Source: an uncultured Methanoregulaceae archaeon (lineage in GTDB: Archaea > Halobacteriota > Methanomicrobia > Methanomicrobiales > Methanospirillaceae). Taken from it: a stretch of 64,000 nucleotides of DNA. Position 1 is the stretch's first letter; each line of letters begins with the position of its first letter. A program made the translations under genes and the position numbers. This document shows, piece after piece, positions 2,889 to 52,656 of this stretch. The stretch spans positions 320,001 to 384,000 of the forward strand of contig CAWJAX010000002.1 of assembly GCA_963841015.1 (NCBI GenBank), in the 5' to 3' direction. Under the pieces are notes generated by a model. That model was not told where the DNA came from, searched no databases, and saw nothing but the letters and a program-made list of their open reading frames with translations.

Positions 2889-3095
2889 GATGAGCGTCAT
2901 AGGGTACTGGAAATTAACGGTCATAGTTGGTCACGGTTAATGTGCTTTTAATTCAATATATTTACTTTTCTGTTTAACAAAGTCGAGAATAACATCAGCC
3001 GTTGTCACGGGCAGAATGCACCAAAAATAATCATTGGGATCATACACACCCCACACCATACTTTTGCATCGTGTTCGTTGCTGGTGATCCTGATA

Positions 3096-4241
3096 CTACT
3101 CGAGTGGGATGAGTGCGTCAGCCCACCAATCCGGGGGTATTTGCGCGACGGGCGTGTAGACGATACGCTGCTCACCTGGGATCGGTGGCAACTGGTCAAA
3201 AGCCTTTACCTGGCGAGCGACCACGGCTTCTTTCGTCATGTTGAATATCGTGAGATCCTGGGTCTGGACAACGGGGCCGGTATACACCTCACGAAGCTCT
3301 GAGAAGACCATGGGGATGATCTGGGGTGAGAGAAGCGTATGCCAGAGACCAGCCATACGCGGCTTTACGAGTCCGAACACCTTGCCAGCGGCCTTTGGCG
3401 TGGTGTGGGCGGCATTGAGCGCCATCGTCACCCGCTCAATGGAGAGACCCGAAGCGGCAGCGAGTGCCGCAGCGGGCGGAAAGCACTCGTGAATGAGCAA
3501 GTCGACGCTGCCTTTACAGGCACGCACGAGTGGCCAACACGCCAGAGTATCGCCCGAGAAAACGAACGACAGACCAGCGAAATCGATGCGATAGCCGACA
3601 GCACCGCTGAGCGCGTGGATGACGGGAAACGAGGTAATCTTCACGCCATTCTCCTCGTAGGCCACCAGGGTTTGGCTGAAGTCGAACTCGGACACCACGA
3701 TCCTCATACTGTCCGGATTGATAGGGCCACGCCCGGCTTCGGTGTCCCACACAAGTGCTTCCTCGATTGATTCGGCAAAGTGCTTCGTGCCAAGGCGAGG
3801 TTCGGTCCCACTGGGTCCCCACAGGTAAATCGGACCGTCAGCCCGGCCAACCTTTGCGAAGCTACCGACAAGAGTGATGAGATCACCCATGTGGTCAGCG
3901 TGCAGGTGAGTCAGAAACACCTTGTTGAGCTTGTTGACCGGCAGCTTCAGACTCGCGTAGTTCGCGAGGGAGCCGCTACCGAGATCGAAAACCAGGAGGT
4001 CACGCTCGGCATTACCAACTTCGACGAGGATGCTGGCTGCGGCCTGGCCTCGCGTCACCCAGGGGTTGCCGCTACCGAGCACCGTCACTCGCATCTCGCC
4101 GTCCTCGACCTTCTCTTCACCGGGGATGAACATCTCCGCGTACTTCCGTCGCGGGGTGCCCACAACCGGAGTCATGGTGATCGCCTTCGTTCCGCCCGCA
4201 AATACTGGCACCGGCAGGGATTGGGATTTGCCGGTCGTCAT
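3096..4241 (-). CDS. MBL-fold hydrolase, RNase Z/arylsulfatase-like
   Basis: VLGSG, FDLGSG, THLHADH (HxHxDH), VIH, FSGDT, LIHE, AHT motifs. Confidence 0.85.
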   Translation of the reverse strand: MTTGKSQSLPVPVFAGGTKAITMTPVVGTPRRKYAEMFIPGEEKVEDGEMRVTVLGSGNPWVTRGQAAASILVEVGNAERDLLVFDLGSGSLANYASLKLPVNKLNKVFLTHLHADHMGDLITLVGSFAKVGRADGPIYLWGPSGTEPRLGTKHFAESIEEALVWDTEAGRGPINPDSMRIVVSEFDFSQTLVAYEENGVKITSFPVIHALSGAVGYRIDFAGLSFVFSGDTLACWPLVRACKGSVDLLIHECFPPAAALAAASGLSIERVTMALNAAHTTPKAAGKVFGLVKPRMAGLWHTLLSPQIIPMVFSELREVYTGPVVQTQDLTIFNMTKEAVVARQVKAFDQLPPIPGEQRIVYTPVAQIPPDWWADALIPLE

Positions 4242-4589
4242 TTTGCACTCCTCGCGCTTTCAATTCGGTTTCGGTTGTTTATTATAAGGATCAATCGATT
4301 TCGAATTTTTACCACCTGTGTTTTCCAATAATAATCACTTTGGACGTTATTATTTGATTTGATTGTCGACCTAATGAAATGAACATGCTTTCATTTAACC
4401 AATGGAAAAAAATGAAGGGAGTGAATGGATTACGCCCATCTCCGCAAGAACTATGATACGATCAATGTTAACCCGAATGTGATCAAGGCTATCGCAACTA
4501 ATCTAATGCCGCGATCACGAGCTAGGATTGAACAGCGCAATAATTCTTCATATTACTGCGATAATACTGATGATTATGGTTGCAAGAAT

Positions 4590-6570: not shown

Positions 6571-7695
6571 ATGAAAAAGAACCTGCTGATGTGGGATGAA
6601 ACACTCTTCCGCGACCCCGAGGTACTGGAGATTGATTACGTTCCCGAGCAGTTCGAATTCAGGGACACCCAGATGCGCGAACTGGCTTTCCAGATCCGTC
6701 CCGGCCTTCGCGGAGGGAGACCGCTCAATACGGTCTGCAAAGGGTTGCCCGGGACAGGAAAGACCACAAGTATCCGGAAACTGTTTGCAGAGATCGAGGA
6801 AACGACAAAAAAACTTGTTCCGGTGTACATCAACTGCCAGATCGATAATACGAAATTTGCAATCATATCACAGATTTACAAAAAGCTCGCCGGGCATCTG
6901 CCCCCGTCATCCGGCACATCCTTTAAGCAGGTGTTTGATGCCGTTGCCCGCATCCTGATAAAAGAGGAAATTGTGCTGCTTGTCGCGCTCGATGATGCTA
7001 ATTATCTCCTCTATGAAAACGAGATAAACAAGGTGCTCTACACCCTGCTCCGGTCCCACGAGACCTACGAGGGGACACGAATAGGTGTGATCGTTATAGT
7101 AAGCGATCTTGATGTGGACCTCACCCGCGCAGTCGATGCTCGTGTCGCGTCGGTTTTTCGTCCTGCCGAGATCTATTTTCCTCCCTATGATAATGTCGAA
7201 ATACATGAAATAATGAAAGCAAGGGTCATTCAGGGTCTTTTCCAGGGTGTTCTGAGCGAAGAATTGCTGAATCTCGTTGTTGAACAGACCCTTAAAAATG
7301 GGGATCTTCGGGTAGGAATTGATCTTTTAAAAAGGGCGACGCTCAGTGCAGAACGTTCAGCCCGGCGCTCTATCGGGCGGGAGGATATCTGCGGTGCCTA
7401 TGAGGTCTCAAAGTACCTTCATCTTTCCTATACGTTAAAAACACTCAAGGATGAAGAGCGGCTGATTCTCAAATCCTTTGCAGAAAGAAGCGCAAAAGAA
7501 CATGAGATGAACGCAGGTGAAGTGTACAAATCCATCCGGGAATCCCTGTCAATCGGTTACACCCGCTTCTATGAGATCATAAAAAAAATGGATGCAATGC
7601 GGCTGATAAACCTGCAGTACCGTGATGGAAAAGGCAGAACCCGGATCATAACCCTGCGGTACGACCCGGCAAAGGTCCTCGAATATCTCGCGTGA
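6571..7695 (+). CDS. cdc6: ORC1/Cdc6-type DNA replication protein
   Basis: DYVPE..FRD, Walker A GLPGTGKT, Walker B-like ALDD, GDLR, C-terminal winged helix with GKGRTR. Confidence 0.92.
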   Translation: MKKNLLMWDETLFRDPEVLEIDYVPEQFEFRDTQMRELAFQIRPGLRGGRPLNTVCKGLPGTGKTTSIRKLFAEIEETTKKLVPVYINCQIDNTKFAIISQIYKKLAGHLPPSSGTSFKQVFDAVARILIKEEIVLLVALDDANYLLYENEINKVLYTLLRSHETYEGTRIGVIVIVSDLDVDLTRAVDARVASVFRPAEIYFPPYDNVEIHEIMKARVIQGLFQGVLSEELLNLVVEQTLKNGDLRVGIDLLKRATLSAERSARRSIGREDICGAYEVSKYLHLSYTLKTLKDEERLILKSFAERSAKEHEMNAGEVYKSIRESLSIGYTRFYEIIKKMDAMRLINLQYRDGKGRTRIITLRYDPAKVLEYLA

Positions 7696-37523: not shown

Positions 37524-38812
37524 TATACTGCCTCTCTTCGATCAATCACTCTCTTTGCCTTTCCTTCAAACCGTGGAAGTGACCCCGGCTCAACAAGTTT
37601 AACGGTTGTCCTGAGCTCGAGTGCATCCCGAAGTTCCTTTACAACTTTTTTCTGGAGTCTTGCAAGATCCGCAAGTTCCCCGCTGAAATACTCGCGGTTG
37701 ATCTCAACTTCGACGGTCATCTCATCCAGATGATTAATTCTGTCGATATATACCATAAACTGATTGCCTACCTCGGGTATTTTAAGAAGGATATGTTCTA
37801 TCTGGGACGGGAACACGTTGATTCCGCGGATTACCAGCATATCATCACTTCTCCCCGTGATTCTCGCAATTTTTTGTCCCCGTCTGCATAAACAACCGTC
37901 TTCCATCTTTACGGTAATATCTCCCGTGCGGTAACGGAGCAGCGGCATTGCTTCCTTGACCAGCGGGGTTACCACCAGTTCACCACGTTCACCCTCTGAT
38001 ACTTGTTCTCCGGTCCTAGGATCGATAATCTCGACAAGGAAACAATCATGCCAGATATGAAGCCCGTCTCGTTCAGGACATTCGAATGCGACACCGGGAC
38101 CAAAAAGCTCGCTTAAACCATAAGAATCATAGGCAGTTAGTCCGAGTCTTTTTTCAAGCATGTGACGTGTACTTTCCGACCAGGGTTCTGCGCCAAAAAT
38201 ACCCGTCCGGAGTGTATCGAGTGACGCCCCCATCTCTTCTGCTACTTCAGAGAGGTGCATTGCATAACTGGGTGTACAATGGATAGCAGTCACCCCGAAA
38301 TCCATGATCATTTCGATCTGGCGTTTTGTATTACCTGTAGCGCTTGGAATCACCGTCATACCAATTTTTTCTGCCCCATAATGAAAACCGAGACCTCCGG
38401 TGAACATGCCATAATTCACCATATTCTGGAAGATATCATTTTCACCAACACCCACCATAGTCATGTTCCGTGCAATGAGATTTGCCCACGTGTCAATGTC
38501 TTTTTGAGTGTAACCAACAACGGTTGGTTTTCCCGTTGTTCCGGATGTTGTATGAATCCGTACGATTTTTTTCATAGGAACAGCTAAGAAACCGAATGGA
38601 TATCCCCCCCTGAGATCCTGTTTTTTGGTAAAAGGGATTTTCCGGATATCCTCCAGTGTTTTGATGGATGATAGTTTCACGCCAGCATCTGAGAGAAGAT
38701 TCCGGTAAAACGCAACGTGCTGTACCTGGCTGATTGTTGTTTTCAGACGTTTGAGTTGAAGAGCCTCCAATTCACGAGGGTTCATTGTTTCTATCTTCTT
38801 ATCCCAGAACAT
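37523..38812 (-). CDS. paaK: Phenylacetate-CoA ligase family protein (tandem paralogue)
   Basis: TSGTTGKP, GAEPW, YGLSE, RYRTGD, GRSDDML. Confidence 0.9.
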   Translation of the reverse strand: MFWDKKIETMNPRELEALQLKRLKTTISQVQHVAFYRNLLSDAGVKLSSIKTLEDIRKIPFTKKQDLRGGYPFGFLAVPMKKIVRIHTTSGTTGKPTVVGYTQKDIDTWANLIARNMTMVGVGENDIFQNMVNYGMFTGGLGFHYGAEKIGMTVIPSATGNTKRQIEMIMDFGVTAIHCTPSYAMHLSEVAEEMGASLDTLRTGIFGAEPWSESTRHMLEKRLGLTAYDSYGLSELFGPGVAFECPERDGLHIWHDCFLVEIIDPRTGEQVSEGERGELVVTPLVKEAMPLLRYRTGDITVKMEDGCLCRRGQKIARITGRSDDMLVIRGINVFPSQIEHILLKIPEVGNQFMVYIDRINHLDEMTVEVEINREYFSGELADLARLQKKVVKELRDALELRTTVKLVEPGSLPRFEGKAKRVIDRREAV

Positions 38813-39029
38813 ATACTGCCCCTGTTATGCTATTGCATGACAGAGAATATATGGTGTTTTTAACTCTTTAAATTCACCGAATTTATGTAAACAACATTCA
38901 TAGGAAACTCTCCTTAAAAAAATTGGTGAAATTCAGCCTGGAATTGATGTTGGCTGAAAAAACGATGAATTAATCAGGAAGAAATAGCGTAGTAATTAGA
39001 TTAGTAGAAAAATATTTTTTTTGAGGTGG

Positions 39030-39938
39030 ATGGTGACTGATTATCCCTGGTTGTTGGTGAGCGGATTTGGTGTCCATATAAAATCCACCCAGAAAAAACT
39101 GATTATTCAGAAAAAAAAAGGTGTCGAGGAATATCCTCTTGAATCGGTAAAAAACCTGCTTGTTATGGGAGGCCACACCATCAGCTCGTCAACGATTGTA
39201 AATCTTGTGAAAAATGGTGCATTTATATCATTTTTTGAACCCGATGGCAATCCAATAGGAATTATCCGACCCTTTGGAGATCGGAGTGATACGGAGATTT
39301 ACAGAATACAGCAGGCTATCCCCCGACATCGATATGCTATTACCCTTGCACAAACAGCAATAAAATCCCGTCTCTTTGCGATTCAATATGTTCAGGAAAA
39401 CCAGAATATTCACCTGTTTTATGAAGGTGAACAGGAATTTCTTCATAAAGCTCAGGAGGAACTTCAGTATTTAATCAAACTGGATGAAATACAAAGATTA
39501 CACCGGCTTACTTCAGATATGTATTACGAGATAATGTCACGGAATACCCCTCCGGATTTCGGATTCCGGAGGAGAACAATACGGCCCCAGTCAGATCCAA
39601 TCAACGCAATGCTTTCATTCGGGTACGCGATGTTGTTTGGAAATTGTTGCGTCTCTCTTATTGGAGCCCGACTGGACCCGGATTATGGCTTGATATATGA
39701 AGGGAAAGGGTGCCTTGTACAGGATCTCATTGACCCTCTTAAAGCTGGAATGATTGATGGTGTAGTATTTCAGATAGCAAGAAATTCTCTCTCAACCTTG
39801 GATTATGAACTGACGCCAAACAGGTGCATACTCTCAGATGAACTTATACAACAGCTGATTGGATTATTTCATTCCTCAATAAATACTGAAAAAATTGATG
39901 AACTGGTATTCAGACTTCTCTCAAGCGATCACCAATAA
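39030..39938 (+). CDS. cas1: Stand-alone Cas1 homologue (Cas1-solo), probably catalytically degenerate
   Basis: N-terminal beta domain (LIIQ..YPLE..GGHTISS), FGFRRR..DPINAMLSFGYAML, LDP..G, LVQDLIDP; no cas2 or array in window. Confidence 0.85.
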   Translation: MVTDYPWLLVSGFGVHIKSTQKKLIIQKKKGVEEYPLESVKNLLVMGGHTISSSTIVNLVKNGAFISFFEPDGNPIGIIRPFGDRSDTEIYRIQQAIPRHRYAITLAQTAIKSRLFAIQYVQENQNIHLFYEGEQEFLHKAQEELQYLIKLDEIQRLHRLTSDMYYEIMSRNTPPDFGFRRRTIRPQSDPINAMLSFGYAMLFGNCCVSLIGARLDPDYGLIYEGKGCLVQDLIDPLKAGMIDGVVFQIARNSLSTLDYELTPNRCILSDELIQQLIGLFHSSINTEKIDELVFRLLSSDHQ

Positions 39939-40244
39939 CGGTGAATTCAGAGTCCGGGTACTGAGCCGCCCTTCTCCTTTAATGATTGAAAAGTCATTAA
40001 AAGTCATAAAAGAAATATCAGAGGTTCGTAAATCACGGATGACTGCACGTGGACAGCTATAAATCATTGAAATAAACTTTTCAAGAATCATTGACTCCGC
40101 GGATGCATAGATATGAACTCTTCCATCGGGAAGATTTATGACCGTCCCGGTAACATGTAAATCGGTTGCAATCCTTCTCACACATGCCCTGAATCCAACT
40201 TTTTGAACTCTCCCGCTGATAAAAATTTCAACGGTTTTCACCAT
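39921..40244 (-). CDS. acyP: Acylphosphatase
   Basis: ISGRVQKVGFRA, GTVINLPDGRV (catalytic Arg and Asn present). Confidence 0.88.
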   Translation of the reverse strand: MVKTVEIFISGRVQKVGFRACVRRIATDLHVTGTVINLPDGRVHIYASAESMILEKFISMIYSCPRAVIRDLRTSDISFMTFNDFSIIKGEGRLSTRTLNSPLLVIA

Positions 40245-43200
40245 TACAACCCCTGCATAAGTTTAATTGCAAGACCAAGCTCGTCAAAAACCTCATCGCG
40301 AAGGGATGACTGACGGATATTCGTTGCAGCGTCAATTGCAAGATCAAGAACCTCCTGTGCCGTCTTCTCAGAACCAGCTGCATGGATCTTCATGGCTATA
40401 TCACACATGATAAAAGCTCTTCGGGAAAGCGGTCGGATTATCCGTGCCTCTTTTATAGCATTTTGTAGCAGGCGGTTGAATATTTTCTCCGCCCCCACTT
40501 TTCTGAACAGTAGTGCGATATCACAGAAAAGAATCGCTCCTTTTCCACGATCCGCTACAGAACGGATCAATTTTTCCAGAGAAGTGATCTGGTTCGGATG
40601 GGCGCCATCTTCAATTATTTTTTCAACAAGAACCTTGATTTTTTCATATTGAGCAGGTATTTCGTAGGTATCTTTAAGTCCCATCTGCGTGAGGCGATGG
40701 AGCCGTATCTCGTCATTTTCAATTGTTTTTGTAACTTCTTTTGCATATTGCTGGTATTTTGTGTTGTTGTGCTTGTGATAGAGCACAATGTACATCTGAG
40801 CAATTTTATCACGAATTGTATCAGCAATCTGTGGAATGTTTATTTTTCTGGTTAATGCATCCGCTTTCTTAAGCAAAATCACCGGGGTGTCGTCATCGCT
40901 GTTTTGTAGTGCAAGCGGGATGATATCAAGAAGGGCTGATGCTTTTTCATAGGGCGAAGGAATTCTTTCGACAGCTTCTGACATGCGGGTTACTATTGTT
41001 TTACCTCGATCCCTGTCATTACTGGTCATACTGAAAACTGCAATAAGTGAATCTACATAGTCAACAGGTTCGGTGATTTTTGATGAAACCTGTAAAGCAA
41101 CATCGAACAATTTGTTGTCCGGCTCAATGACGTTCATCTGGACAATTGCCAATACAATCTGTTTGCTTGCCATCGCATTTTTGTCATCCTCAACATTGCG
41201 TAATCGTTCAATTCCCTGTTCAAGGCATTTTTTTGCTTTTTGTGGATCGATAGTACTAAACAGCAGTGTAAGATCAGCGAGGATGAGAACTTTTTTGTAT
41301 TCAGCAGGAATTTTTTGGAGTGAATGGCAGACATCGTTTAAAATTTCCCGTGCATGATCGAAATCGTGCAATTTGATGTACGTTTCTGCAAGATTGCACA
41401 TCCCTGAAAGTTCCATATAGGGATCATTAATCAGCTGGAGATAGCGGAAAATCAGAACAATCATGAGCGGATTTGATGTCGAGTGCTCATTTCTCTGAAG
41501 GAGAAATGCCATAATCTCGTAAGGATCAGTTGAGTCCGGATACGTGACACTGTAGTTAAGATTTGAAATGATCCGGGACATCATGGCGTCTCTTTCCAGA
41601 GGATTTTCGATTTCAACAGCGTACATTGCCAGTGGTATAATATAATCCGGGTTGTCGCTGACAGATGAATATGAAATAAGAATATCAATCATCCCTGCGA
41701 TCTTCAGCGATATTCGTGGTTTTTTAACAGTTTCTTTTATTATCGATAATCCTCGTTCAAACGGGTATATTTCTGATGAAAAAACCTCTGTATCTGTATG
41801 TGATTTTGGCTCTTTTAAGAGGATACACCCAATTTTTACGAAACACTCGGCAATTCTCCCAAATTGTTGGGTTTTTAACCCGGGATCGCCGATGTCTTTT
41901 GCGATTTTATACGCTTGTTCAAGTGCAGAGGGAGAATGTTTATCGATTGCATATTGTATTACCCCATCAATTATATTCACCATCGCATTTTCTGCGAGAT
42001 TTTTTTCAAGTAAGGAGTTGATCCATTCTTTCATCCTGAGGAGAAGGTCCAGATCCCCTTGTTGTGCGGCAAAAATTGAAGCTTCATCGATTATTCCGCT
42101 CAGTGCTGAAGAACGGATGTCCTGACCGTTAATATCGCAAGTGAGACCTACCGCTCTTTGGAGATAGTCGCGGTTTTTTATTTTTACCCCGATTTTTGCT
42201 ATTTGGAGGGCAATGTTTGCAATCGCTTCTTCCTTAAGGTGGTGTTCCTTGATGAATTCGGCCATTCGTATCAGAATGTATGGATCATGTAATGCCAGAA
42301 ATCCCCGGTTGATGAGAATGGTAATACTTTCGAGAAGCAGGTGGTCCTGCAGAGGATGCAGGCGGATGAGGTCGGTAATAGAATGAATGTGAGAAATTAT
42401 ATCATTAAACGGGTCATCCGTGCTTAATTCTATGATTGCCCGATTAATTGATTTATGTACAATCTCTTCGTTCAATTGTTTGAGGATCATCTCGTTGACC
42501 AATGGGATACTATGCCGAAAAACTCCGGTTTTAAGCATGTGGGTGAGGTTGTCTTCATATTGGGGAAGATTTTCTGTCTCGTGGCTGATTTTTTTAAATA
42601 TCCCGATTGCAGAGTTAAAATCCCCGTAGGAAAGCATGATCTGGGAAAATTGAAGGTAGATTCTTGATATAACAACCGGATTGCTGTGTTTATCGATAAT
42701 GGGAATCAGATCCGAGAGAACATGCATATTGTTTGAATGTTTGGCAACAGAAATGCCCGCCCTGACCAGTTCCCTGAGTGGGTAAGCCTCGGTATTTAAA
42801 AAAAGACTGATGTAGGTTTATGGCAGAGGAGAGGTACCATAATTCTCCTGACAGTTCTGCTTTTTTAAGAAGATCGATAACAAGCGTATTGGTGACAAAA
42901 GGTAGTTTTTCACAAAGAGTCTCAATGAGAGTGATAATATGGACTTTATCCTTTTCCCGATCCAGGAGCTGTTCTGTCAGGGCATTCACAATTTCAAGTT
43001 GTATTTCAGGTGAAAGGGCCTCAAAATTTTGTATAAAGAGTGAAATATCCAGTATTTCTTTTCCGAAAACAGATTTCACTCCCTTTTCAATAATCGCTGA
43101 AATACATGCCTGTCTTCGGATCTTCTGATGGATTTTGCATGCACTTTGGATACTGTCAATGAATAAAATACGGTTTTTTTCGAGAATGGCAACAGTTGCC

Positions 43201-43802
43201 AATGCTTTTGCAAGTTCTGCATGCAATACTGCACGTTTTGAAATATCACTGATCTCCTCAATGATATGGTGTGATTGATAGAGGAGTTTTTCATCATGGG
43301 TTGTAATCGCCCAATCAATCAGAAGAGGAATAATATCGATCATGATATCCGATCGATATTTCTGGAAACTGATCCGTTCGAGCAGGATTATACCATGATC
43401 AATAAATTCCGCATTGGATTCATGAACACCGGCGCTGATAAGAGCCTGTGCCATCATGGCAATTACCCGGGACTGATGACTTTTTTTATTTAGCCTTTCC
43501 GACAGCACATAAACAGATTTTAACCATTTCTCATTCTTGGTTATAATGAATTGGTGAACTATCTGCGAGAACAAGTCATCAATTTCACTACTTGGGAGAT
43601 CCGGTAGAGCAAGTAACAGTTCAGGTTTATTTTTTTTAATTGCGGTAGTCGTGATTGATTTGTTAATGTCTTTAATGAGGGTTTTTTGTGCCCTTTTTCC
43701 TTTTTCCTGATGTATTTCTGCTATACTACTCTCTATAATTTTCCAGTCTTCAGCTGATAGTGCCTGCTGGACCTTTTTGACAATTTCGGTAGTGTTGACC
43801 AT
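40244..43802 (-). CDS. Large (~1180 aa) alpha-helical repeat protein, split by frameshift at A7 run 42798-42804
   Basis: ORFs 42690-43802 and 40244-42727 join on removing one base; recurring A..I....R..AL..IA helical repeats. Confidence 0.7.
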
Positions 43803-44084
43803 TCTTATATCACAGATATGAAACTATGGGTTGATAAACACAATTTAACTCAAATAGTTATTAAATTTTTTGTTTTTATTTACGCTTAAATTTAATTTTT
43901 TTTATCATAATTGAAGAAAATTTCCGATTTTTTTCAAAAAATCTCCAAAAAAACATATTATTTTTTAACAATCGGCAAAATTATCAATTATTTCCCGAAT
44001 TATCACCCGAAAAAGGGTATAATTTTGTAATAAAGGACCAGGATATTATTTCACGCCTGTCCAGGGAAACGGATATTCGTAAAC

Positions 44085-45452
44085 CTATTCTGTGGTAATT
44101 TTTAAAATATGGTCCATCAGTTCACCATGAAAAATCTGGCTATGGTGATCAGAGTCCGCGTCAATTATTATCCGGATTATGGGCTCAGTACCTGAAGCAC
44201 GAACAAGCGCCCACGAATCTTTCCTTAAAATTTTTACCCCATCTGTCAGGTCCAACGATTCCTGAGAATATGACTTTTTAAGGGATTCAAGCACTTGTGT
44301 TCCGCGTGATGTACTGATTTTATCCTTGATCATGGAGCGTCTGGGCAACGCGTTCACCAGTGTCGAAAGTTGTTGACCCGTCGAAGCAAGAATAAAAACC
44401 ATCATTGCAGCTGTCATACCCCCATCACGGCAGAACTGGTGATCGGGGAAAATAAGTCCCCCGTTTCCCTCGCCCCCGAATATAACCTTATCTCCCTTCT
44501 CCATCATTGACCGCATAGTACGTGCAACATAGATACTTCCAACCGGTGTATAGGTGATCGTGCAACCTTCATTTTTCACCACCATTTCCACGACAAGCGA
44601 TGTGCTAACCGGAGTAACCAGTGTTCCTTTTTTCTGGTGACATGTGTGCTGAGCTATCAGGGCAAATTCTCTGTTTTCTTCAATAAATCGTCCCTTCTCA
44701 TCGATGAATACTGCCCTATCTGCATCACCATCATGCGCAACGCCGAATGCTGCTCCACTGCTGACTACGAGTTCAGCCAGATCTTTGAGACCCTCAGGAG
44801 AAGGTTCGGGTAACCTTCCGGGAAATGTCCCGTCCATAACTCCATTGAGCGTGAGAACCCTGCATCCCATTCCGTTGAGGATCTGGGGTGTTGTGAGGCA
44901 TGCGGGACCGGATCCCGGATCAACCACAACGGATATTCCTGATCCCACATTTTCAGGGAAATGATGCACAATTGCCTGTATGTATTTCGTGATTAGATAT
45001 GGAGCATTTGTTTCCTGCCCGATGTATTCCCACGATTCAGGAGAAAATGAAGGTTCAAATATCAGTTGTTCGAGCCTGAGTGTTTCCTCATCACCCATTT
45101 CCGTGCCATCGGCCTCTATGATCTTGACCCCGTTATATTCAGGTGGATTATGCGATGCGGTTATCATTGCACCCCCATCAAACTGCTCTTTAATGAGGTA
45201 TTGGAGTGCAGGGGTGGGCAGGATGCCACAATCAACAACATTACAACCTGTTGCAAGCAGACCTGATTTAACTGCCTTTACGAGCGTTTCACCAGATGTC
45301 CGGGTGTCTCTTCCAACTGCAATACAGCCTTTGCGCATTGTTCCAAGTGCTTCCCCAATGGTTAGTGCTAAATTGGGCGTCAGATCTTTACCCACTATTC
45401 CTCTGACCCCATTTGTACCAAACAACCTTTTCTGAAATTTTGTTGATTGCAT
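44085..45452 (-). CDS. glmM: Phosphoglucosamine mutase / phosphohexomutase
   Basis: FGTNGVRG, TASHNP, DGDADR, GEGNGG, RASGTEP. Confidence 0.88.
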   Translation of the reverse strand: MQSTKFQKRLFGTNGVRGIVGKDLTPNLALTIGEALGTMRKGCIAVGRDTRTSGETLVKAVKSGLLATGCNVVDCGILPTPALQYLIKEQFDGGAMITASHNPPEYNGVKIIEADGTEMGDEETLRLEQLIFEPSFSPESWEYIGQETNAPYLITKYIQAIVHHFPENVGSGISVVVDPGSGPACLTTPQILNGMGCRVLTLNGVMDGTFPGRLPEPSPEGLKDLAELVVSSGAAFGVAHDGDADRAVFIDEKGRFIEENREFALIAQHTCHQKKGTLVTPVSTSLVVEMVVKNEGCTITYTPVGSIYVARTMRSMMEKGDKVIFGGEGNGGLIFPDHQFCRDGGMTAAMMVFILASTGQQLSTLVNALPRRSMIKDKISTSRGTQVLESLKKSYSQESLDLTDGVKILRKDSWALVRASGTEPIIRIIIDADSDHHSQIFHGELMDHILKITTE

Positions 45453-45477
45453 GATTCCTTGCCTCCATTATTCTTTT

Positions 45478-45894
45478 TTATTTGCGAAAAGTTTCGAAGA
45501 GATTAAGCGATGAAATGACCTCATCAACTGAAGGATTTGTCAGGATAGTGGTATCAGCAGTCAGACTACCGATAACTATTTTGGGAAACGATCGTTGTTT
45601 AAAGCCCTCAATTATGGCAAAGTCCATACTTTGATCGAAGAGCATTCTCAAAACATCGTCAAGGGAGTTCTTACGTAACGCCACTACTGCTTTGTGGGTA
45701 TCTATTCCTGCAGAAATGTCTGCACCTCCATCAAAAAAAACCGTGGTGTCTTTTCCCTTATCGATATTGTAGGTATGATCTGCCAGATGTTTGATCACTC
45801 CTACTTTTCCTTTTTTTTTGAGTTCGGGAATCAGGCTTTTAATAAATGTTGTTTTACCAGAATTTGAGTTTCCCACAACCTGGATTATTTTCAT
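45478..45894 (-). CDS. mobB: Molybdopterin-guanine dinucleotide biosynthesis protein B
   Basis: VGNSNSGKTT, VIKH, GKDT, IIEGFK. Confidence 0.9.
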   Translation of the reverse strand: MKIIQVVGNSNSGKTTFIKSLIPELKKKGKVGVIKHLADHTYNIDKGKDTTVFFDGGADISAGIDTHKAVVALRKNSLDDVLRMLFDQSMDFAIIEGFKQRSFPKIVIGSLTADTTILTNPSVDEVISSLNLFETFRK

Positions 45895-45943
45895 ATGTTT
45901 CTCTCCTTCTTTAATCGATTAGAATTACTAATAAGTTGTACCA

Positions 45944-46780
45944 TTATATTTCCGAATTTTCCTGATGTTTGGTTTTAATTTCTCCTGCGTTGATATCTGA
46001 AATCTTTTCCTGATCACGGGTACCAGGAAACTCACCCGAAACAAAACTCATTGTAATTGATCCGTCCAATGCAATTTTTTTATCTACGGTAGGAAGAATT
46101 TCTGGTGTCCCTGTTTCCTGAATTGGTGTCCCAAATGGAGGGCCCTGGGCTTCTGGTTTTTTATCGTCGCCAATTTTTTCTCGGCCTGGTGCTTCATTAA
46201 GAACAGTATTATTTTCGGGTATCGATTTTTGTGATAGAGGATGGATTATTTGATCGTATGAATCTCCCTCTTCTGCCCTTGATTTAAGAATGGTTTTTGC
46301 TGCTTCCCCAACACTTCTCATCACTTTGGTGATCCGATCCTCAATATCAATCTCTTCATCAATATCCAGTGTGGTTCCTTCCACCTCGAGAAGAAACCGT
46401 GCTACCTCGCTTGCTTCAAAAAGCAGATCATCAAGTTCATCAGTGGTAAAAAATCCACACATTGCTCCATAGAAAAATGTGGCGCTTGCTTTTCTCACCT
46501 TCTTTTTGAATGAGTTACGTGCCTGGTTGACAGCCTGGGGTGTATAGGTATCTTCCATAAACGGTACAAGTTCCGGGAGATGTTTTCCAATAAAGGTCAT
46601 CTCTGCACCCCCTGATGTTCGGAAGTCCGTACATAACCGTGCAAGCGCCCATTCCCGTGCTGTTATGTAGGTTCTCTTACGCAGAAACTGGTTTACTTTT
46701 CGATAAGTAGCCCCATCAACTTTTTTAAATTTTCTATATTTACTTATCTCCTGACGGATACGGGAATCGTCCATTTTCAA
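45944..46780 (-). CDS. Conserved euryarchaeal hypothetical protein (DUF5806-like) with low-complexity C-terminus
   Basis: YITAREWALARLC.DF, VNQAR.SF motifs recalled from Methanomicrobia/haloarchaea. Confidence 0.7.
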   Translation of the reverse strand: MKMDDSRIRQEISKYRKFKKVDGATYRKVNQFLRKRTYITAREWALARLCTDFRTSGGAEMTFIGKHLPELVPFMEDTYTPQAVNQARNSFKKKVRKASATFFYGAMCGFFTTDELDDLLFEASEVARFLLEVEGTTLDIDEEIDIEDRITKVMRSVGEAAKTILKSRAEEGDSYDQIIHPLSQKSIPENNTVLNEAPGREKIGDDKKPEAQGPPFGTPIQETGTPEILPTVDKKIALDGSITMSFVSGEFPGTRDQEKISDINAGEIKTKHQENSEI

Positions 46781-47292
46781 CCTCCTGTCTGATTTGTGGT
46801 TTATCCAAAAACCAGGCCTGCTGGTGGGATTATCTATGATCTCTCTGTTTTGTGTATAGCAATATATGGTTTATTGCTATTAAAATTATGATAAACTCTT
46901 CTGGTTTTTTTGTCAACAATACGTCTGAAAAATACGTTTGAAAACAGATTTTTTTAAGGATAAAGGTCCACGATCGTTTTATTGTCCTGTATGACCGTTT
47001 TCATGAGATTTCAAGACATAAGATCAACCGGGCACGATTGCACCCTCCTATTTCCTGCTTTGATTGTAAAAGCAGCTGGTTAAATTTTTTCCTGGTCAAT
47101 AGCAATGCATCAGCCCTCCCAAAAAAATTGTCCGGTCCTTCCGAATTGCACGATTGCACCCATGCTATTTTTCGTTTTCTCTTATTGGCTTGCTGCCTTT
47201 TGTTCGAATGATTGTTCAAGGTGATCCGGATAAAGCACCCCGGGAAATCTTGCCCTTCAATTTTACACACTATGCAGTATATTTTTTTTGCT

Positions 47293-47488
47293 CTGTTTTG
47301 CTCTTTAGAACTCCTTTTTTTACTGTGATATGAAATTCGAGATGCTGGTACGATGAAGGAGGGGGGACCGTGCCTGTCCCCTCATACCACCCCTGCGCTG
47401 AGCGATCAGGACTTAGCACCTGTGTTCGGATTTTTTTGCAGCGGCGGGGGTGAAATCCCCCTTGAGCGTATAGCTTGTAATTGAACAT
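47293..47488 (+). repeat. Dispersed intergenic repeat family, copy 4 (~200 bp)
   Basis: TGATATGAAATTC..GCTGGT.CGATGA..GGGGAC.GTGCC.TGTCC..CATACC.C.CCTGC..TAGCACC..GGGGTGAAA.CCCCCTTGAG shared with 27310-27510 (minus). Confidence 0.8.
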
Positions 47489-48924
47489 CTCTACAGAGTT
47501 TTTTTTAAATTTTACGGAATCTTTGCGAATTTTTTGTGTATGATTTTGTTGTGTTCTTCTTTATGCAAAGGCACGCGAATTCTCCTTCATTTGATACTGG
47601 GCAAGCCAGAATAATTCACGAATATTTCTATTCCCTATAACCTGATATTTCGGCTCTTTTTTAATGAGGTGGCTGTTGCATAATGTTCGATTAATTTTGT
47701 GATGATTGTAGTGCAGCTTTTCATGGGAAGGCCAATTTACTCGAAAAATGGTGAGAAGGGAAGAAATCCAGCAAAAAAATTGCCTTTAGTATATAGCATC
47801 ATATGGTTTATAATAAAAAGAGGGCTAACAGAAAAAATAATCATAAAATTAAAATTTATGCATATTTTTTAAAAATAACTCTATTTGGGGGATTTATAAT
47901 TGTTATACCAAAAATTATGTACGTGTGTGCATATAATCCTTACACCAGGGTAAAGTCAGATTAAATGTGGAATTTAGAATACTATTCTTGTATTTTATGC
48001 AAAACATATCCTCCATCGGAAAACACACCCCTGAATGTCCACTAAGATTTTTATTTGTATGATTAAATTTTTTTTAAGAAGATTTTCGTGATTTATAGGA
48101 AAAACCTAGACAATTTGCTTATTACCAAAAGAATGTTCGATGTATTTCGCACGAATTACCTTAAAATGTCCTCAATTTTAGAGTTTAACGCGAAACTATT
48201 CTCTTTTGGAATTATAATTTGGAACCAATCGATCTTGTCGGAACTTTTACGGTACTCCGGGTTTACGAAAGAAACTGGTAAACGAATTTTTACCAGAGTT
48301 CGTTCTCCTTTCACAAATATTTGATAATGTCACGAAATATCCACTAACTTCAGGTTTTCTTCCAATTTTTAACAGATTCAACGCTAAATTATCTGGATTA
48401 ATCGGTTGATATATTCTGGAACATCCCTGGTTGGAGCAGGATTGACTTAAAGCACAACCGGATTCTGTTTTTCTGTCATAAAATTCCAGAAAAACCTCAT
48501 ATCTGGTGCATGAAAGATAATGAGAAGACTACTGATCAGGACAAATCCTGTGCCGTATTTTAATAAGGGGAAAATGGTGTCCTTTCATTTTCAAAGACCA
48601 TTATTACGCCGGGTACAAATCAGACTAGTGATATAACTAAATCTTGTATCTTCTGTCTGAATGAACCAGTCTTCAATTTTCCACAGACGACAGAACTCAA
48701 TAGTGGGCTTCTGGCAACGTTTCTGATATGGCTTGAATCGAATCTACCCTATCTGATGAAAAAACCCCCTTTTTTAATATCTCTTAATCGAAGTGTCAAC
48801 TTACTTTCAGATAGAGATACCAGTAAAATATGTACACAAGGGATGATGCTGCAGTTTGTATGAGTTTTGACAACATACCTTCAAATTGGCATTCCAAGCA
48901 GCATCGAGATACAGCGATTTCAGA

Positions 48925-48952
48925 CTTTCGCAGAACAGGTATTCTGCGCAAA
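48925..48952. promoter_or_regulatory. 11-6-11 imperfect palindrome (CTTTCGCAGAA-CAGGTA-TTCTGCGCAAA) abutting xerA TATA box; candidate XerA binding/dif site
   Basis: CGCAGAA-N6-TTCTGCG inverted arms ending 34 bp before the xerA ATG, followed by CTTTATTTAT. Confidence 0.55.
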
Positions 48953-48985
48953 CCTTTATTTATTTGAGATAAGATAAATTAGACC

Positions 48986-49903
48986 ATGGAAAGCGGGTAT
49001 TTTTCGGAGTGGCTCAAAAGCTACCGCAACTACCTCCGGATGCGTAATTACTCCCCCCGCACGCTCAACAGCTATGAACAGGTCATTAAACATTTTGCTT
49101 ACTACGTTTGGCTGCGCCGTCACACGGATGTGACGAAACTTGTAATATACTGGAAAGATTTTGAAAATGCCCGGCTTGATACTGACGTAGAGGTTACTCC
49201 AGTAATTATTACGGATTTCCTCTCATTTGTATCGTCAATGCAGACATACAAACCCAAAACGTTTCACCGTATTATATCAACCCTGAGCTCATTCTACCGC
49301 TTCCTGTTTACGCAAGGAGCTGTCACATCCAACCCCCTGACCGGTATCGATCGTCCTCGGATAAAACAACAGGATGTAAAATATCTCAAGCACAACCAGG
49401 TGTTGCGACTGCTTGATTCAATAGAAGATCCTCGTGACAAACTTATTGTCAGGACCATTTATGCTACCGGTGTCCGGGTATCAGAGCTTTGTAATATGAA
49501 TATCGAAGATATCGATTTTGATGAACATACCATCAGAATCCGGGGAAAAGGTGACAAGATAAGAACAGTTTTTGTCGATGATGATACCCTTGCTGATATC
49601 TTAAAGTTCATTGGCAACAGGATTACCGGGCCCGTTTTTGTAGGTCAGCAGGGTAAAAATATCTCATCAAGAGCCATTCAGCATATCTTCAAACATTATG
49701 CACCCACGGGGATAACCCCACATAAGATTCGTCATAGTTATGCAAGTGAACTTTATAAACGATCAAAAAATCTCAGGGTTGTCCAGGAAAATCTTGGTCA
49801 TACCTCCATAAAAACAACAGAAATTTACCTCCATACCGATATTGACGAACGAAGACAGGTTTATCAACAGTTTTTCCCGCTTTCTGACAATGATGAGAAC
49901 TAA
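48986..49903 (+). CDS. xerA: Tyrosine recombinase XerA
   Basis: YSPRT, SSFYRFL, YATGVRVSEL, GKGDK, TPHKIRHSYA, LGHTSIKTTEIY (R-K-H-R-H-Y intact). Confidence 0.9.
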   Translation: MESGYFSEWLKSYRNYLRMRNYSPRTLNSYEQVIKHFAYYVWLRRHTDVTKLVIYWKDFENARLDTDVEVTPVIITDFLSFVSSMQTYKPKTFHRIISTLSSFYRFLFTQGAVTSNPLTGIDRPRIKQQDVKYLKHNQVLRLLDSIEDPRDKLIVRTIYATGVRVSELCNMNIEDIDFDEHTIRIRGKGDKIRTVFVDDDTLADILKFIGNRITGPVFVGQQGKNISSRAIQHIFKHYAPTGITPHKIRHSYASELYKRSKNLRVVQENLGHTSIKTTEIYLHTDIDERRQVYQQFFPLSDNDEN

Positions 49904-50460
49904 TACGGCCAGTGCTTCTTTATTTAAAAAAAATTGGTAATGCCAGTATCTTTCCAGTTTTCATAGTGATTCAATATTGGTAAAAAACTTCGAATCGCTC
50001 AATCACAAATAACAGTAATTCAGTCTTATTTTTGTGTTTAAACCACATTTCTATCGATAATCTCTCCCAAAAAAACTGTGAAAACCTCTGAATTTTTTTA
50101 AGGTATAAACCATATGTTGCTATATACTAACGGCATCATTTTCTCCCTCGATTATATGAGCTTTTAGAATTTTCTGTGCTTTCTCTGGTGCACCAGCTTC
50201 CAGAATGAAAAATCAGAAAGGATAGATACGGAAATTATCCGGGATGGTTCATATCGATGAATTCTGTTGCAGTATAGTAGAGAAAATTTTCTTCACGAGT
50301 ATCTGATGATGCATTCACCCGCAGTAATTCATGGAATTTTTGGTGTGGATCTCGCTGGTAGACTATGAATAATGAGACTTTGCCTGGGTTCCCGGCGAAG
50401 AATGCAAAGGACCCAATCGCCATTATTAATAGCAGATAAATCTCCTGACATTTGATGAGA

Positions 50461-51452
50461 AAAATCCAGATAACTCTAATTATATTCAATGTCTGGTGAA
50501 GAACCTGTGGTATCGAAATGTTTGGGATGGGGAATTTACCGATGAGGATATGAGAAAAATCCAGATAAATCCAATTATAACTAATGTCCGAAGAAGAAGG
50601 TAAAGTATCTTATCTTTCCGTTTAAGAAGCCAGCCGGTGAAAGAACCAGTAAAATCCAGATAACTCTAATTATATCCAATGTCTGGTGAAGAACCTGTGG
50701 TATCGAAATGTTTGGGGTGGGGAATTTACCGATGAGGATATGAGAAAAATCCAGATAAATCCAATTATAACTAATGTCCGAAGAAGAAGGTAAAGTATCT
50801 TATCTTTCCGTTTAAGAAGCCAGCCGGTGAAAGAACCAGTAAAATCCAGATAACTCTAATTATATCCAATGTCTGGTGAAGAACCTGTGGTATCGAAATG
50901 TTTGGGGTGGGGAATTTACCGATGAGGATATGAGAAAAATCCAGATAAATCCAATTATAACTAATGTCCGAAGAAGAAGGTAAAGTATCTTATCTTTCCG
51001 TTTAAGAAGCCAGCCGGTGAAAGAACCAGTAAAATCCAGATAACTCTAATTATATCCAATGTCTGGTGAAGAACCTGTGGTATCGAAATGTTTGGGGTGG
51101 GGAATTTACCGATGAGGATATGAGAAAAATCCAGATAAATCCAATTATAACTAATGTCCGAAGAAGAAGGTAAAGTATCTTATCTTTCCGGTTAAGAAAC
51201 CAGCCGGTGAAAGAACCAGTAAAATCCAGATAACTCTAATTATATCCAATGTCTGGTGAAGAACCTGTGGTATCGAAATGTTTGGGGTGGGGAATTTACC
51301 GATGAGGATATGAGAAAAATCCAGATAAATCCAATTATAACTAATGTCCGAAGAAGAAGGTAAAGTATCTTATCTTTCCGGTTAAGAAGCCAGCCGGTGA
51401 AAGAACCAGTAAAATCCAGAAAACTCTAATTATATTCGATGTCTGGTGAAGA
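50461..51452. repeat. Tandem array: five 190-bp units plus a partial sixth; each unit is two diverged 95-bp monomers carrying a dif-like 11-6-11 core
   Basis: Units start at 50461, 50651, 50841, 51031, 51221, 51411; second monomer at +95 in each. Confidence 0.97.
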
Positions 51453-51595
51453 GCTCCGGAGAAGCAACTTGTGTAATCTGATTCATTGAGTAGCCTACGA
51501 AATCAGGGTATATTTTTGTATTTACCTATCAGGTTACATAATTGTATAACCACAATTCTTTATTTCATATTTGCTGACATAATGTGGGAACAGAT

Positions 51596-52051
51596 ATGCC
51601 AAAAGTCCAGAAACGGAAATACGAAAAAATCGATGATCTGGAAATTGACCTGGTTATCCAATGTAATGACAGTCACGAATTCTATGAACGATACCGACAG
51701 GTTTTCCCTAATAAAAAGAAAGGAATTGACAGCATCAGTAAAATCTGGAAACGACGCAGCGAATTTATTAAAAAACAACATGGTGATTTGCAACCTGCCG
51801 AATCTCATTCAGGATCCTCACGTGAACTCGAGATCCTTATCACTGATCAGAACAAAATTCTGGCTGAATTATCCGGTGTTATGAAAGAACACCTCAGGGT
51901 AAGTAAGGAAATCCTGGCGCGTTTCCCAAAACAGATACAGAAATCCGATGAGCCCGTTCAGAAAACTGCAGAAGTCAAAATCCCTGATCACAAAGAACCT
52001 GAAAAGAAAATCAGTGGGGAAAGACGTAAGGATATTATGATAGGGTCCTGA
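51596..52051 (+). CDS. Hypothetical protein; basic N-terminal putative Myb/HTH-like domain plus coiled coil
   Basis: Intact ORF; FYERYRQVFPNKKKGIDSISKIWKRR segment, heptad-like ELEILITDQNKILAELSGVMKEHL. Confidence 0.7.
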   Translation: MPKVQKRKYEKIDDLEIDLVIQCNDSHEFYERYRQVFPNKKKGIDSISKIWKRRSEFIKKQHGDLQPAESHSGSSRELEILITDQNKILAELSGVMKEHLRVSKEILARFPKQIQKSDEPVQKTAEVKIPDHKEPEKKISGERRKDIMIGS

Positions 52052-52259
52052 ACCCTGAATATATAAATCAAAAAGTAAAAAACCAATTCAATGAACTCTG
52101 ATGATGAATGTAATATTATGATTCGGCATTCGTTACCTTCCTATGAGGGAAAATATTTTTTTTTGACAAAGGTATCCTTATAGTCCTAAAATGCAAATAT
52201 GCCTAAGCATCTTTCTGAATAAAAGGAAGGTAGCCGAATTCGCAATCGTTTAATTAAAT

Positions 52260-52332
52260 ACCCCCGTAGTGTAGCGGTCAATCATGCAGGACTTTGGATC
52301 CGGCGACACCAGTTCGAATCTGGTCGGGGGTA
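52260..52332 (+). tRNA. tRNA-Gln(UUG)
   Basis: Acceptor ACCCCCG/CGGGGGT with A1-U72, D-arm GTGTAGCGGTCAATCAT, anticodon loop CT-TTG-GA, T-arm ACCAG-TTCGAAT-CTGGT. Confidence 0.93.
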
Positions 52333-52656
52333 TTGAAAAGCAGGCACTGGTATTGTCACTCTTTTTGGACAAATTGATCAACAAAATGACTTATTGTTGT
52401 TTAAAAAAATCTTTTTTCGCGTTAAAATAAATGGTTGCCCGGACAGGGACACCTATGACACCAGTCAGGAACTCTCCTGGATTGGGACAGAATCATTATC
52501 CGGCAATCCCTTTTTTTAAATTTTGACCGACCACGAATGCCCACGCGACAGGCCCCTAATGCATCCCCATCTCCAGCGCACCCTCTTCTCTGTGCAAGTG
52601 TATATATACGGAATCATTCCCACATTATCAGAACATATTACCAGGAGCTTTTGATA

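Follow-up and report, generated by a model that had tools for sequence, protein, structure and literature searches.

A phased tandem array with dif-like cores between xerA and ORF155 in one Methanoregula subclade

A tandem array lies between xerA and ORF155

The 64,000-nucleotide stretch studied here, referred to as the window, comes from an uncultured Methanoregulaceae archaeon (GenBank assembly GCA_963841015.1, contig CAWJAX010000002.1, positions 320,001 to 384,000 of the forward strand) whose genome, G000, is assembled into 2.28 Mb on five contigs and is 94% complete. At 50461-51452 (+) the window carries a tandem array of 95-bp units, each with a 28-bp core that resembles dif, the Xer recombination site. 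The array is preceded by xerA (48986-49903, +), which encodes an archaeal tyrosine recombinase of 305 aa, and followed by ORF155 (51596-52051, +; 151 aa from its ATG), a nearly genus-restricted gene, and by tRNA-Gln(TTG) (52259-52333, +), the right-hand anchor of an xerA-tRNA interval that varies within the genus from 430 bp to 4.2 kb. The xerA product scores 283 bits against the NCBIfam XerA equivalog NF040815 (cut-off 220), has P. abyssi XerA as its best solved relative (4a8e, E 9.7e-30) and is the single match of its kind in G000 at E <= 1e-30; matches were found in 23 of 31 genomes of the order Methanomicrobiales, with 53-69% identity across the order.

Tandem Repeats Finder describes 50461-51452 as 5.2 copies of a 190-bp dimer, or 10.4 units of 95 bp, with 99% matches and a score of 1928, and also reports the stretch with a period of 95 (9.3 copies, 67% matches). 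The array, confirmed as a real tandem repeat, contains 11 cores that start at 50463 + 95n (n = 0 to 10) and are thus spaced by exactly 95 bp, with two alternating types of central hexamer. The first-pass annotation, made from the letters of the window alone, had described just such a phased, A/B-alternating array of 11 cores about 560 bp downstream of xerA, and this description is borne out, the distance from the xerA stop codon to the first core being 560 bp. The type-B core, AATCCAGATAA-ATCCAA-TTATAACTAAT, occupies 50558-50585 (+), with identical copies from 50748, 50938, 51128 and 51318. The type-A core, AATCCAGATAA-CTCTAA-TTATATCCAAT, occupies 50653-50680 (+), with identical copies from 50843, 51033 and 51223; the positions and alternation listed previously for this type are correct, but the first copy (50463) has TTATATTCAAT as its right arm, with TTC replacing TCC, so that the exact type-A core occurs four times. 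The last core, AATCCAGAAAA-CTCTAA-TTATATTCGAT (51413-51440, +), is degenerate, similarity between units stopping about 14 bases further on. The pattern AATCCAGATAA-N6-TTATA is exact in 10/11 cores and has one mismatch in core 51413; the left arm, described earlier as invariant, is so in 10/11 cores. Outside the array, the core pattern with up to two mismatches finds three matches in G000, each with two mismatches, against one for the reversed-pattern control; the assembly has the motif nowhere else.

No ORF of at least 50 aa lies inside the array, the first 29 bases of which are overlapped by one 84-aa minus-strand frame; an Rfam scan gave no match within it, tRNA-Gln alone being found in the region, and on neither strand did the repeat unit show a fold relative to shuffles (z-scores +0.4 to +1.1). 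Public runs that hold the stretch are freshwater, sediment, wetland and soil metagenomes, stored as contigs that break at the array. Two RNA libraries have contigs on xerA and on ORF155, and for the array one low-depth contig of 173 bases with 9 differences, which indicates neither transcription nor silence.

The core resembles archaeal dif in part

According to the oligonucleotides given in the Methods of Cortez et al. 2010 (PMC2958812), P. abyssi dif is ATTGGATATAA-TCGGCC-TTATATCTAAA, with TTATATCCAAT as the end of its bottom strand; the T. kodakarensis dif that Yamaura et al. 2025 (PMC11840125) validated by chromatin immunoprecipitation is TTTTGATATAA-TGTACC-TTATATGACAA, and the same report names TAA-N(6-8)-TTA as the most conserved feature of archaeal dif sites. 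All ten full cores of G000 have an 11-6-11 layout with an inner ATAA-N6-TTAT, and so carry TAA-N6-TTA. The type-A right arm is identical at 11/11 positions to the P. abyssi half-site TTATATCCAAT, which verifies the match to a Thermococcales dif arm given in the first-pass annotation; the same holds for the right arm in related arrays of genomes G017 and G123 (type B). By eye, both arms of the type-A core match P. abyssi dif at 17/22 positions, as does T. kodakarensis dif. The 11-mer of the type-A right arm occurs five times in G000, four times in the array and once elsewhere, against about 1.35 expected. It also agrees at 8/11 positions, as stated in the first-pass annotation, with the string given there as the E. 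coli XerD arm; that string did not occur in the one review text searched for it. In view of the half-site identity, the 17/22 arm match, the 11-mer count and the TAA-N6-TTA signature, the dif resemblance of the core is genuine, if partial, and unlikely to be pure chance.

The dyad of the core is weak. Thermococcales dif arms are described as inverted repeats with few or no mismatches (PMC2958812), whereas comparing the two arms of the array core gives 7/11 matches for type A and the G017 consensus and 6/11 for type B, with the forced ATAA/TTAT counted in. Of the seven outer bases on the left, 3/7 fit the dyad, and this part is a direct, not inverted, copy of the outer part of the right arm. 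Shifted by 10 bases, the consensus core AATCCAGATA-AATCCAATTA-TATCCAAT agrees with its own sequence at 15/18 positions, a value that 0/20,000 composition-preserving shuffles equalled, while its dyad reaches 7/11 (P ~0.009). Three direct AATCCA boxes at a spacing of 10 bp therefore describe the core much better than a dyad does. Moreover, all four validated half-sites (4/4) start with TTATAT, as do only 3/10 consensus right arms of the arrays compared below, and 6/10 units of G316 read TCAT in the right arm. A review describes dif as single-copy; G000 has 11 copies of the core, and arrays occur in 6/61 genus genomes. The earlier designation of the cores as Xer/dif-like sites is supported by their layout, by the match of the type-A arms to P. 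abyssi dif and by their constant position beside xerA; their weak dyad, their restriction to a subclade and their conserved centre speak against it. The general lesson, negative but useful, is that resembling dif in the 11-6-11 layout does not suffice to call a recombination site, even where one half-site is exact.

Related arrays are confined to one subclade

Among 61 genomes of the genus, related arrays were found in five others (G017, G321, G316, G016 and G123), so that they are confined to one Methanoregula subclade (6/61 genomes); four or five metagenome contigs also carry them. The full core has no counterpart in the other 55 genomes, and among 30 ORF155 loci those outside the array-bearing genomes have a best match with 8-14 mismatches against a background of 9-14. 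All compared arrays with enough flank sit between xerA and ORF155 in one orientation.

Ten arrays were compared, six from genomes and four from metagenome contigs. Most units of all arrays keep a period of 93-96 bp despite diverged spacers. Core positions 1-21 are conserved at 0.88-1.0, except position 7 (0.68), values inflated by the choice of the four metagenome arrays, which were selected by exact match to these positions. The central hexamer ATCCAA (0.88-1.0), which falls within positions 1-21, is among the best-kept columns and ATAA and TTAT are conserved at 0.91 or more, whereas right-arm positions 5, 6 and 8 drop to 0.47, 0.60 and 0.59, in agreement with the six-genome alignment. The six-genome alignment also places a second box, GTATCCAATCTTTTGA, in mid-unit.

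Alternating hexamers are found only in G000 and, in another form, in G123; in G017, G321, G316 and G016 almost all centres read ATCCAA. Copy number and higher-order period differ from array to array, and G321 and G316 form periods of 181 and 381 bp despite their nearly uniform centre. For this reason, a 190-bp unit can arise without the proposed gating by hexamers, in which only A-A and B-B recombination would be allowed. Some arrays persist with identical centres although their units have diverged (71-88% matches); such drift around one shared centre implies long survival, unlike what freely recombining direct sites would show. Between G000 and its closest relative G123, whose XerA is 99% identical, cores differ at 3-4 of 28 positions (11-14%), spacers at 15 of 67-68 (22%) and the flank between xerA and the array by 10.5%. 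The G123 array is broken by a run of N (locus L079, ~3094-3202), a scaffold gap or masked bases, and the xerA of G017 (locus L036), in a genome that is 56% complete, is read in three frames with a stop, reflecting assembly indels or a decayed gene.

ORF155 and the origin of the boxes

Of 301 genomes of the order, 43 carry ORF155, and 40 of these 43 belong to this genus; xerA lies at most 1.5 kb upstream of it in 19 of 30 loci examined. Its family has 583 metagenomic members at E <= 0.001, and the source names of its close homologues assign the organism to Methanoregula. The structural model of the protein contains a confidently predicted, strongly basic, lysine/arginine-rich N-terminal domain of four helices (residues 14-22, 26-36, 44-52 and 54-63/65), followed by a 38-residue helix and a disordered tail that ends in a conserved DIMIGS. 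A fold search with the whole model returned coiled-coil matches only (Z up to 5.4), and an Atlas look-alike with a score of 0.75 is a lead only. By its position ORF155 is the obvious candidate to bind the boxes; searches matched it to no family, to no solved relative and to no clear fold, so that DNA binding is a guess.

Between the array and the ORF155 start codon lies the motif AACCACAATTCTTTATTT (51548-51565, +), which is shared with the upstream regions of distant ORF155-like genes and is probably the ORF155 promoter; the promoter-like motif (AACCACAATTCTTT...) occupies this place in G000, G123 and G017 and is common to the distant ORF155-like genes. In array-less Methanoregula, the AT-rich region before ORF155 is dotted with ATCCAAT boxes roughly 100-150 bp apart, and an ATCCAA stands 15-17 bases before the ORF155 start codon in 9/30 loci. 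Several array-less loci have a two-box element, AATCCGAAAAT-ATCCAAT-G, before ORF155, and the mid-unit box of the arrays resembles this element proximal to ORF155. Because array-less relatives keep these boxes before ORF155 and the mid-unit box resembles them, the arrays look like tandem amplifications of a box-bearing ORF155 control region.

An order-wide 20-bp element brackets xerA

The sharply bounded 20-bp sequence TATAGCAWCATAYGGTTTAT has three copies in G000, all at the xerA locus. An upstream copy (47792-47811, +) and an inverted downstream copy (50105-50124, -) bracket xerA, the array starting 337 bp beyond the latter and outside the pair; a third copy with one mismatch (46855-46874, +) lies 75 bp from the start of the DUF5806 gene. 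The element was detected in 28/31 Methanomicrobiales genomes belonging to six families, against one match in all of them for a reversed-pattern control, with 1-4 copies per genome that are usually placed one per strand, 1.5-7 kb apart, so as to enclose xerA; in family f6 both copies are located immediately upstream of the gene. The element has no dyad symmetry and lacks TAA-N6-TTA. The orientation of the enclosed segment relative to the DUF5806 gene outside it is opposite in G021 compared to G000, G022, G027 and G029, and inversion between the 20-bp copies must therefore have happened at least once. Between the upstream element and xerA, six genomes revealed no conserved ORF and no Rfam family, and the sequence was not found in the literature searched. 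Judged by its distribution, it is this inverted pair, and not the 95-bp array, that is the deeply conserved xerA-linked DNA element. It may delimit an invertible xerA cassette, be the real XerA site or be the site of a regulator, and it may bear on where XerA acts in Methanomicrobiales.

The 336 bp from the downstream copy to the array (50125-50460) are 89.5% identical in G123 (L079, 2619-2948) and, by eye, largely kept in G017 (L036, ~4116-4456); they hold no convincing ORF, just an 84-aa minus-strand TTG frame without a family, and one RNA-library contig covers 50005-50201, so that the region could be a non-coding transcript. On the other side of the gene, the 2.2 kb upstream of xerA (46781-48985, ~38-39% G+C) have no ORF longer than 89 aa and include a G+C-rich piece of about 110 bp (~47360-47470) that resembles pieces in the xerA-ORF155 intervals of G014 and G007 and may be a small mobile or RNA element.

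Neighbourhood and chromosomal position of the locus

In five complete genomes of the genus (2.6-3.2 Mb), 41-93 kb separate the xerA locus from the second cdc6, and its distance to the first is ~525-595 kb. The cdc6 that comes nearest in G000 is the second paralogue (6604-7656 of the window), at 44 kb. The cumulative GC skew of contig C2 has no turn at the array, near 370 kb. A role as terminus organiser, one of those suggested in the first-pass annotation, was accordingly rejected on the position relative to both cdc6 genes and the absent skew turn; a replication origin was rejected as well, in view of the lack of an adjacent cdc6. Pfam searches of 19 neighbouring ORFs found no Rep, ParA, ParB-type or other replication or partition gene. 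An integrated element at tRNA-Gln was likewise rejected: the end of the tRNA was not found repeated in direct orientation, and ORF155 is kept throughout the genus.

Positions 38000-52000 have a G+C content of 0.37-0.44, compared to 0.45-0.54 in the rest of the window, and do not obviously constitute a foreign island because housekeeping-like genes (phosphoglucomutase, MobB, DUF5806, xerA) lie inside. A Cas1 gene (39021-39938, +; Pfam PF01867, E 4e-49) stands alone and may be a solo Cas1, the neighbours scanned with Pfam, among them an acylphosphatase and a TPR protein, matching no Cas family; for Tandem Repeats Finder, the array studied here is the sole repeat array in the window.

The search for another dif site

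No description of a Methanomicrobiales dif was found in the literature searched; the archaeal dif alignments in Fig. S3 of Cortez et al. and Supplementary Fig. 5a of Yamaura et al. may list one. A scan of G000 for TAA-N6-TTA palindromes gave nothing convincing, and scans with palindromised arms gave nothing better than the array. Order-wide, a degenerate P. abyssi-type pattern matched in 16/121 genomes, about the level of the reversed control. The matches of a five-genome scan were shared by close kin only and a family-wide half-pattern scan was noisy. A match in G164 was rejected as dif, being kept in only 3/61 genus genomes, as was the recurrent g10 site, with an arm symmetry of 5-6/11 and conserved flanks, probably a promoter or gene end.

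Searched with GATATAA-N6-TTATATC and up to two mismatches, G000 has six sites outside the array. C3:681112 shares the ATCCAA centre and was rejected as it lies inside a 779-aa frame; C3:268351 is coding, and C2:165647 is restricted to the closest kin. The site at C3:730352-730379, TTGGGAAATAA-TTCTGA-TTTTATCCTTT, recurs in 10/41 genus genomes with conserved arms and a varying centre, the pattern that would be expected for a recombinase core site, yet it is ambiguous, being shared with the stop codon of a 119-aa ORF and with sequence upstream of the gene that follows. Because 55/61 genus genomes do without the array core, the dif of the genus presumably lies elsewhere.

A possible protein-binding array

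Taking the observed anatomy, phasing, distribution, conservation pattern and two-box ancestry of the array together, we tentatively prefer to see in it a lineage-specific, phased protein-binding array that derives from the ORF155 control region and was resized by unequal exchange. Its functional unit would be the conserved block of ~21-28 bp, in which two to three AATCCA boxes repeat in direct orientation at intervals of one helical turn, and the ATCCAAT box in mid-unit would be a weaker one. The array would have grown by tandem duplication of the box-bearing control region before ORF155, and unequal homologous exchange or slippage would account for its changes in size and for the higher-order units of 190, 181 or 381 bp. 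A sequence-specific protein would bind the boxes and coat the array head to tail, forming a nucleoprotein stretch that adjoins the xerA cassette and precedes the ORF155 promoter, the candidate binder being ORF155 or, alternatively, XerA. As in iteron- or operator-type arrays, the tandem units combine a conserved core that has direct sub-repeats in helical phase with a spacer that varies, and the cores are more likely to be protein-docking sites than working recombination sites.

Several observations weigh against this preferred reading. It leaves as coincidence the 11/11 match to a XerA half-site, the ATAA-N6-TTAT geometry and the linkage to xerA. ORF155 has no Pfam, NCBIfam, PHROG or PDB sequence match, and the fold search with its N-terminal domain reached a best Z of 4.8 with no clear fold, DNA-binding helical domains scoring 3.6-4.2, at noise level. 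The boxes are absent at distant ORF155-like genes elsewhere in the genus. Lastly, beyond the inflated conservation of positions 1-21, constraint on the core is modest, since in the comparison of G000 and G123 the cores changed more slowly than the spacers and no more slowly than the flanking non-coding DNA.

A possible, if doubtful, alternative takes the cores as dif-derived sites at which XerA binds at least the right half-site, the array serving as a sink, an autoregulatory platform or a landmark, and rare recombination between cores with matching centres altering its copy number. In its favour are the P. abyssi half-site reproduced in G000 type A, G017 and G123 type B, the 17/22 agreement of the arms, the conserved ATAA and TTAT, the concentration of the 11-mer in the array, the invariable place beside xerA and the failure to find a convincing dif elsewhere in the nearly complete G000 assembly. 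There is also precedent for such a location, as haloarchaea are described as having a dif-like site that adjoins the xerA operon and T. kodakarensis as having its dif within a 1.9-kb intergenic region (PMC11840125). Set against these points are the lack of the TTATAT start in most consensus right arms and the TCAT of G316, an outer left arm that repeats the right arm directly instead of inverting it, a centre that is among the most conserved columns, old and diverged units that persist in direct arrays with identical centres, the absence of the core from 55/61 genus genomes, and the description of dif as single-copy.

A neutral minisatellite is unlikely. Here, an AT-rich intergenic stretch would have been duplicated by slippage and homogenised by unequal crossing-over, and the dif-like and box-like looks would be by-products. 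The small number of genomes with arrays, the variation of copy number and higher-order period in every array, the faster change of the array relative to its flanks, the cores being no slower than these flanks between G000 and G123, and the lack of a fold in the units all suit such an origin. It accounts poorly for a 21-base block conserved at 0.88 or more across arrays with diverged spacers, for the maintained 95-bp period and for a box motif that predates the arrays and has a fixed place before ORF155 in array-less relatives.

Similarly improbable, in our estimate, is a broader scheme in which the cores would be pseudo-dif sites bound by XerA within a larger undescribed architecture of the xerA locus, the xerA segment being bounded by the flipped 20-bp pair and the half-site array lying just outside it; the array would then serve as a sink or landmark, either adjusting how much XerA is available or marking a chromosomal domain boundary in the manner of the Thermococcus dif region. 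We give very little credence to gene-less XerA/integron-like cassettes or an RNA-level repeat (a sponge or CRISPR-like array), for which the common orientation of all repeats with xerA and ORF155 might speak, seeing that an attC-like site, integron cassette array or structured RNA is at odds with units that fold no better than shuffles on either strand, hold no ORF of at least 50 aa and match no Rfam family, that a CRISPR-like array is at odds with spacers that are themselves repeated and homologous between units, and that DNA stiffness makes 95-bp units too small for excision as circles.

If a protein does coat the array, the locus would offer a compact, natural, helically phased and rapidly resizing binding platform beside an archaeal chromosome-resolution gene, and a function for ORF155, a protein family with no known relatives.

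Comparison with known systems

No description of such an array was found in the literature searched. Like archaeal Xer/dif sites as reported in PMC2958812 and PMC11840125, the core has a 28-bp 11-6-11 layout with ATAA-N6-TTAT, one identical arm and 17/22 matching arm positions, and the array lies beside xerA in a large AT-rich non-coding region; unlike them, it has eleven tandem copies and not one, a weak dyad, a centre as conserved as the arms and a drifting right arm, is restricted to a subclade and does not occupy a terminus-like position. Bacillus subtilis XDS sites, as cited in PMC11840125, are bound by the recombinase without recombining. With these sites and the pdif modules of Acinetobacter, the array has in common the presence of multiple dif-like sites in one replicon; XDS and pdif sites are dispersed or flank genes, with no head-to-tail 95-bp array in their descriptions, and involve XerC/XerD and not XerA. 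Should XerA bind the cores, this would be the first archaeal Xer non-resolution site array found in the literature searched, with XDS sites as its bacterial parallel.

Plasmid iterons and sopC of F are tandem binding arrays, and the Xis sites X1-X1.5-X2 of lambda are head-to-tail operator triplets. The array resembles these systems in having a conserved core in each unit, direct sub-repeats one turn apart and a gene for a small basic protein; it differs from iteron and centromere arrays in that no Rep, ParA or ParB gene is near, its binder is putative only, and it is chromosomal, beside a housekeeping recombinase.

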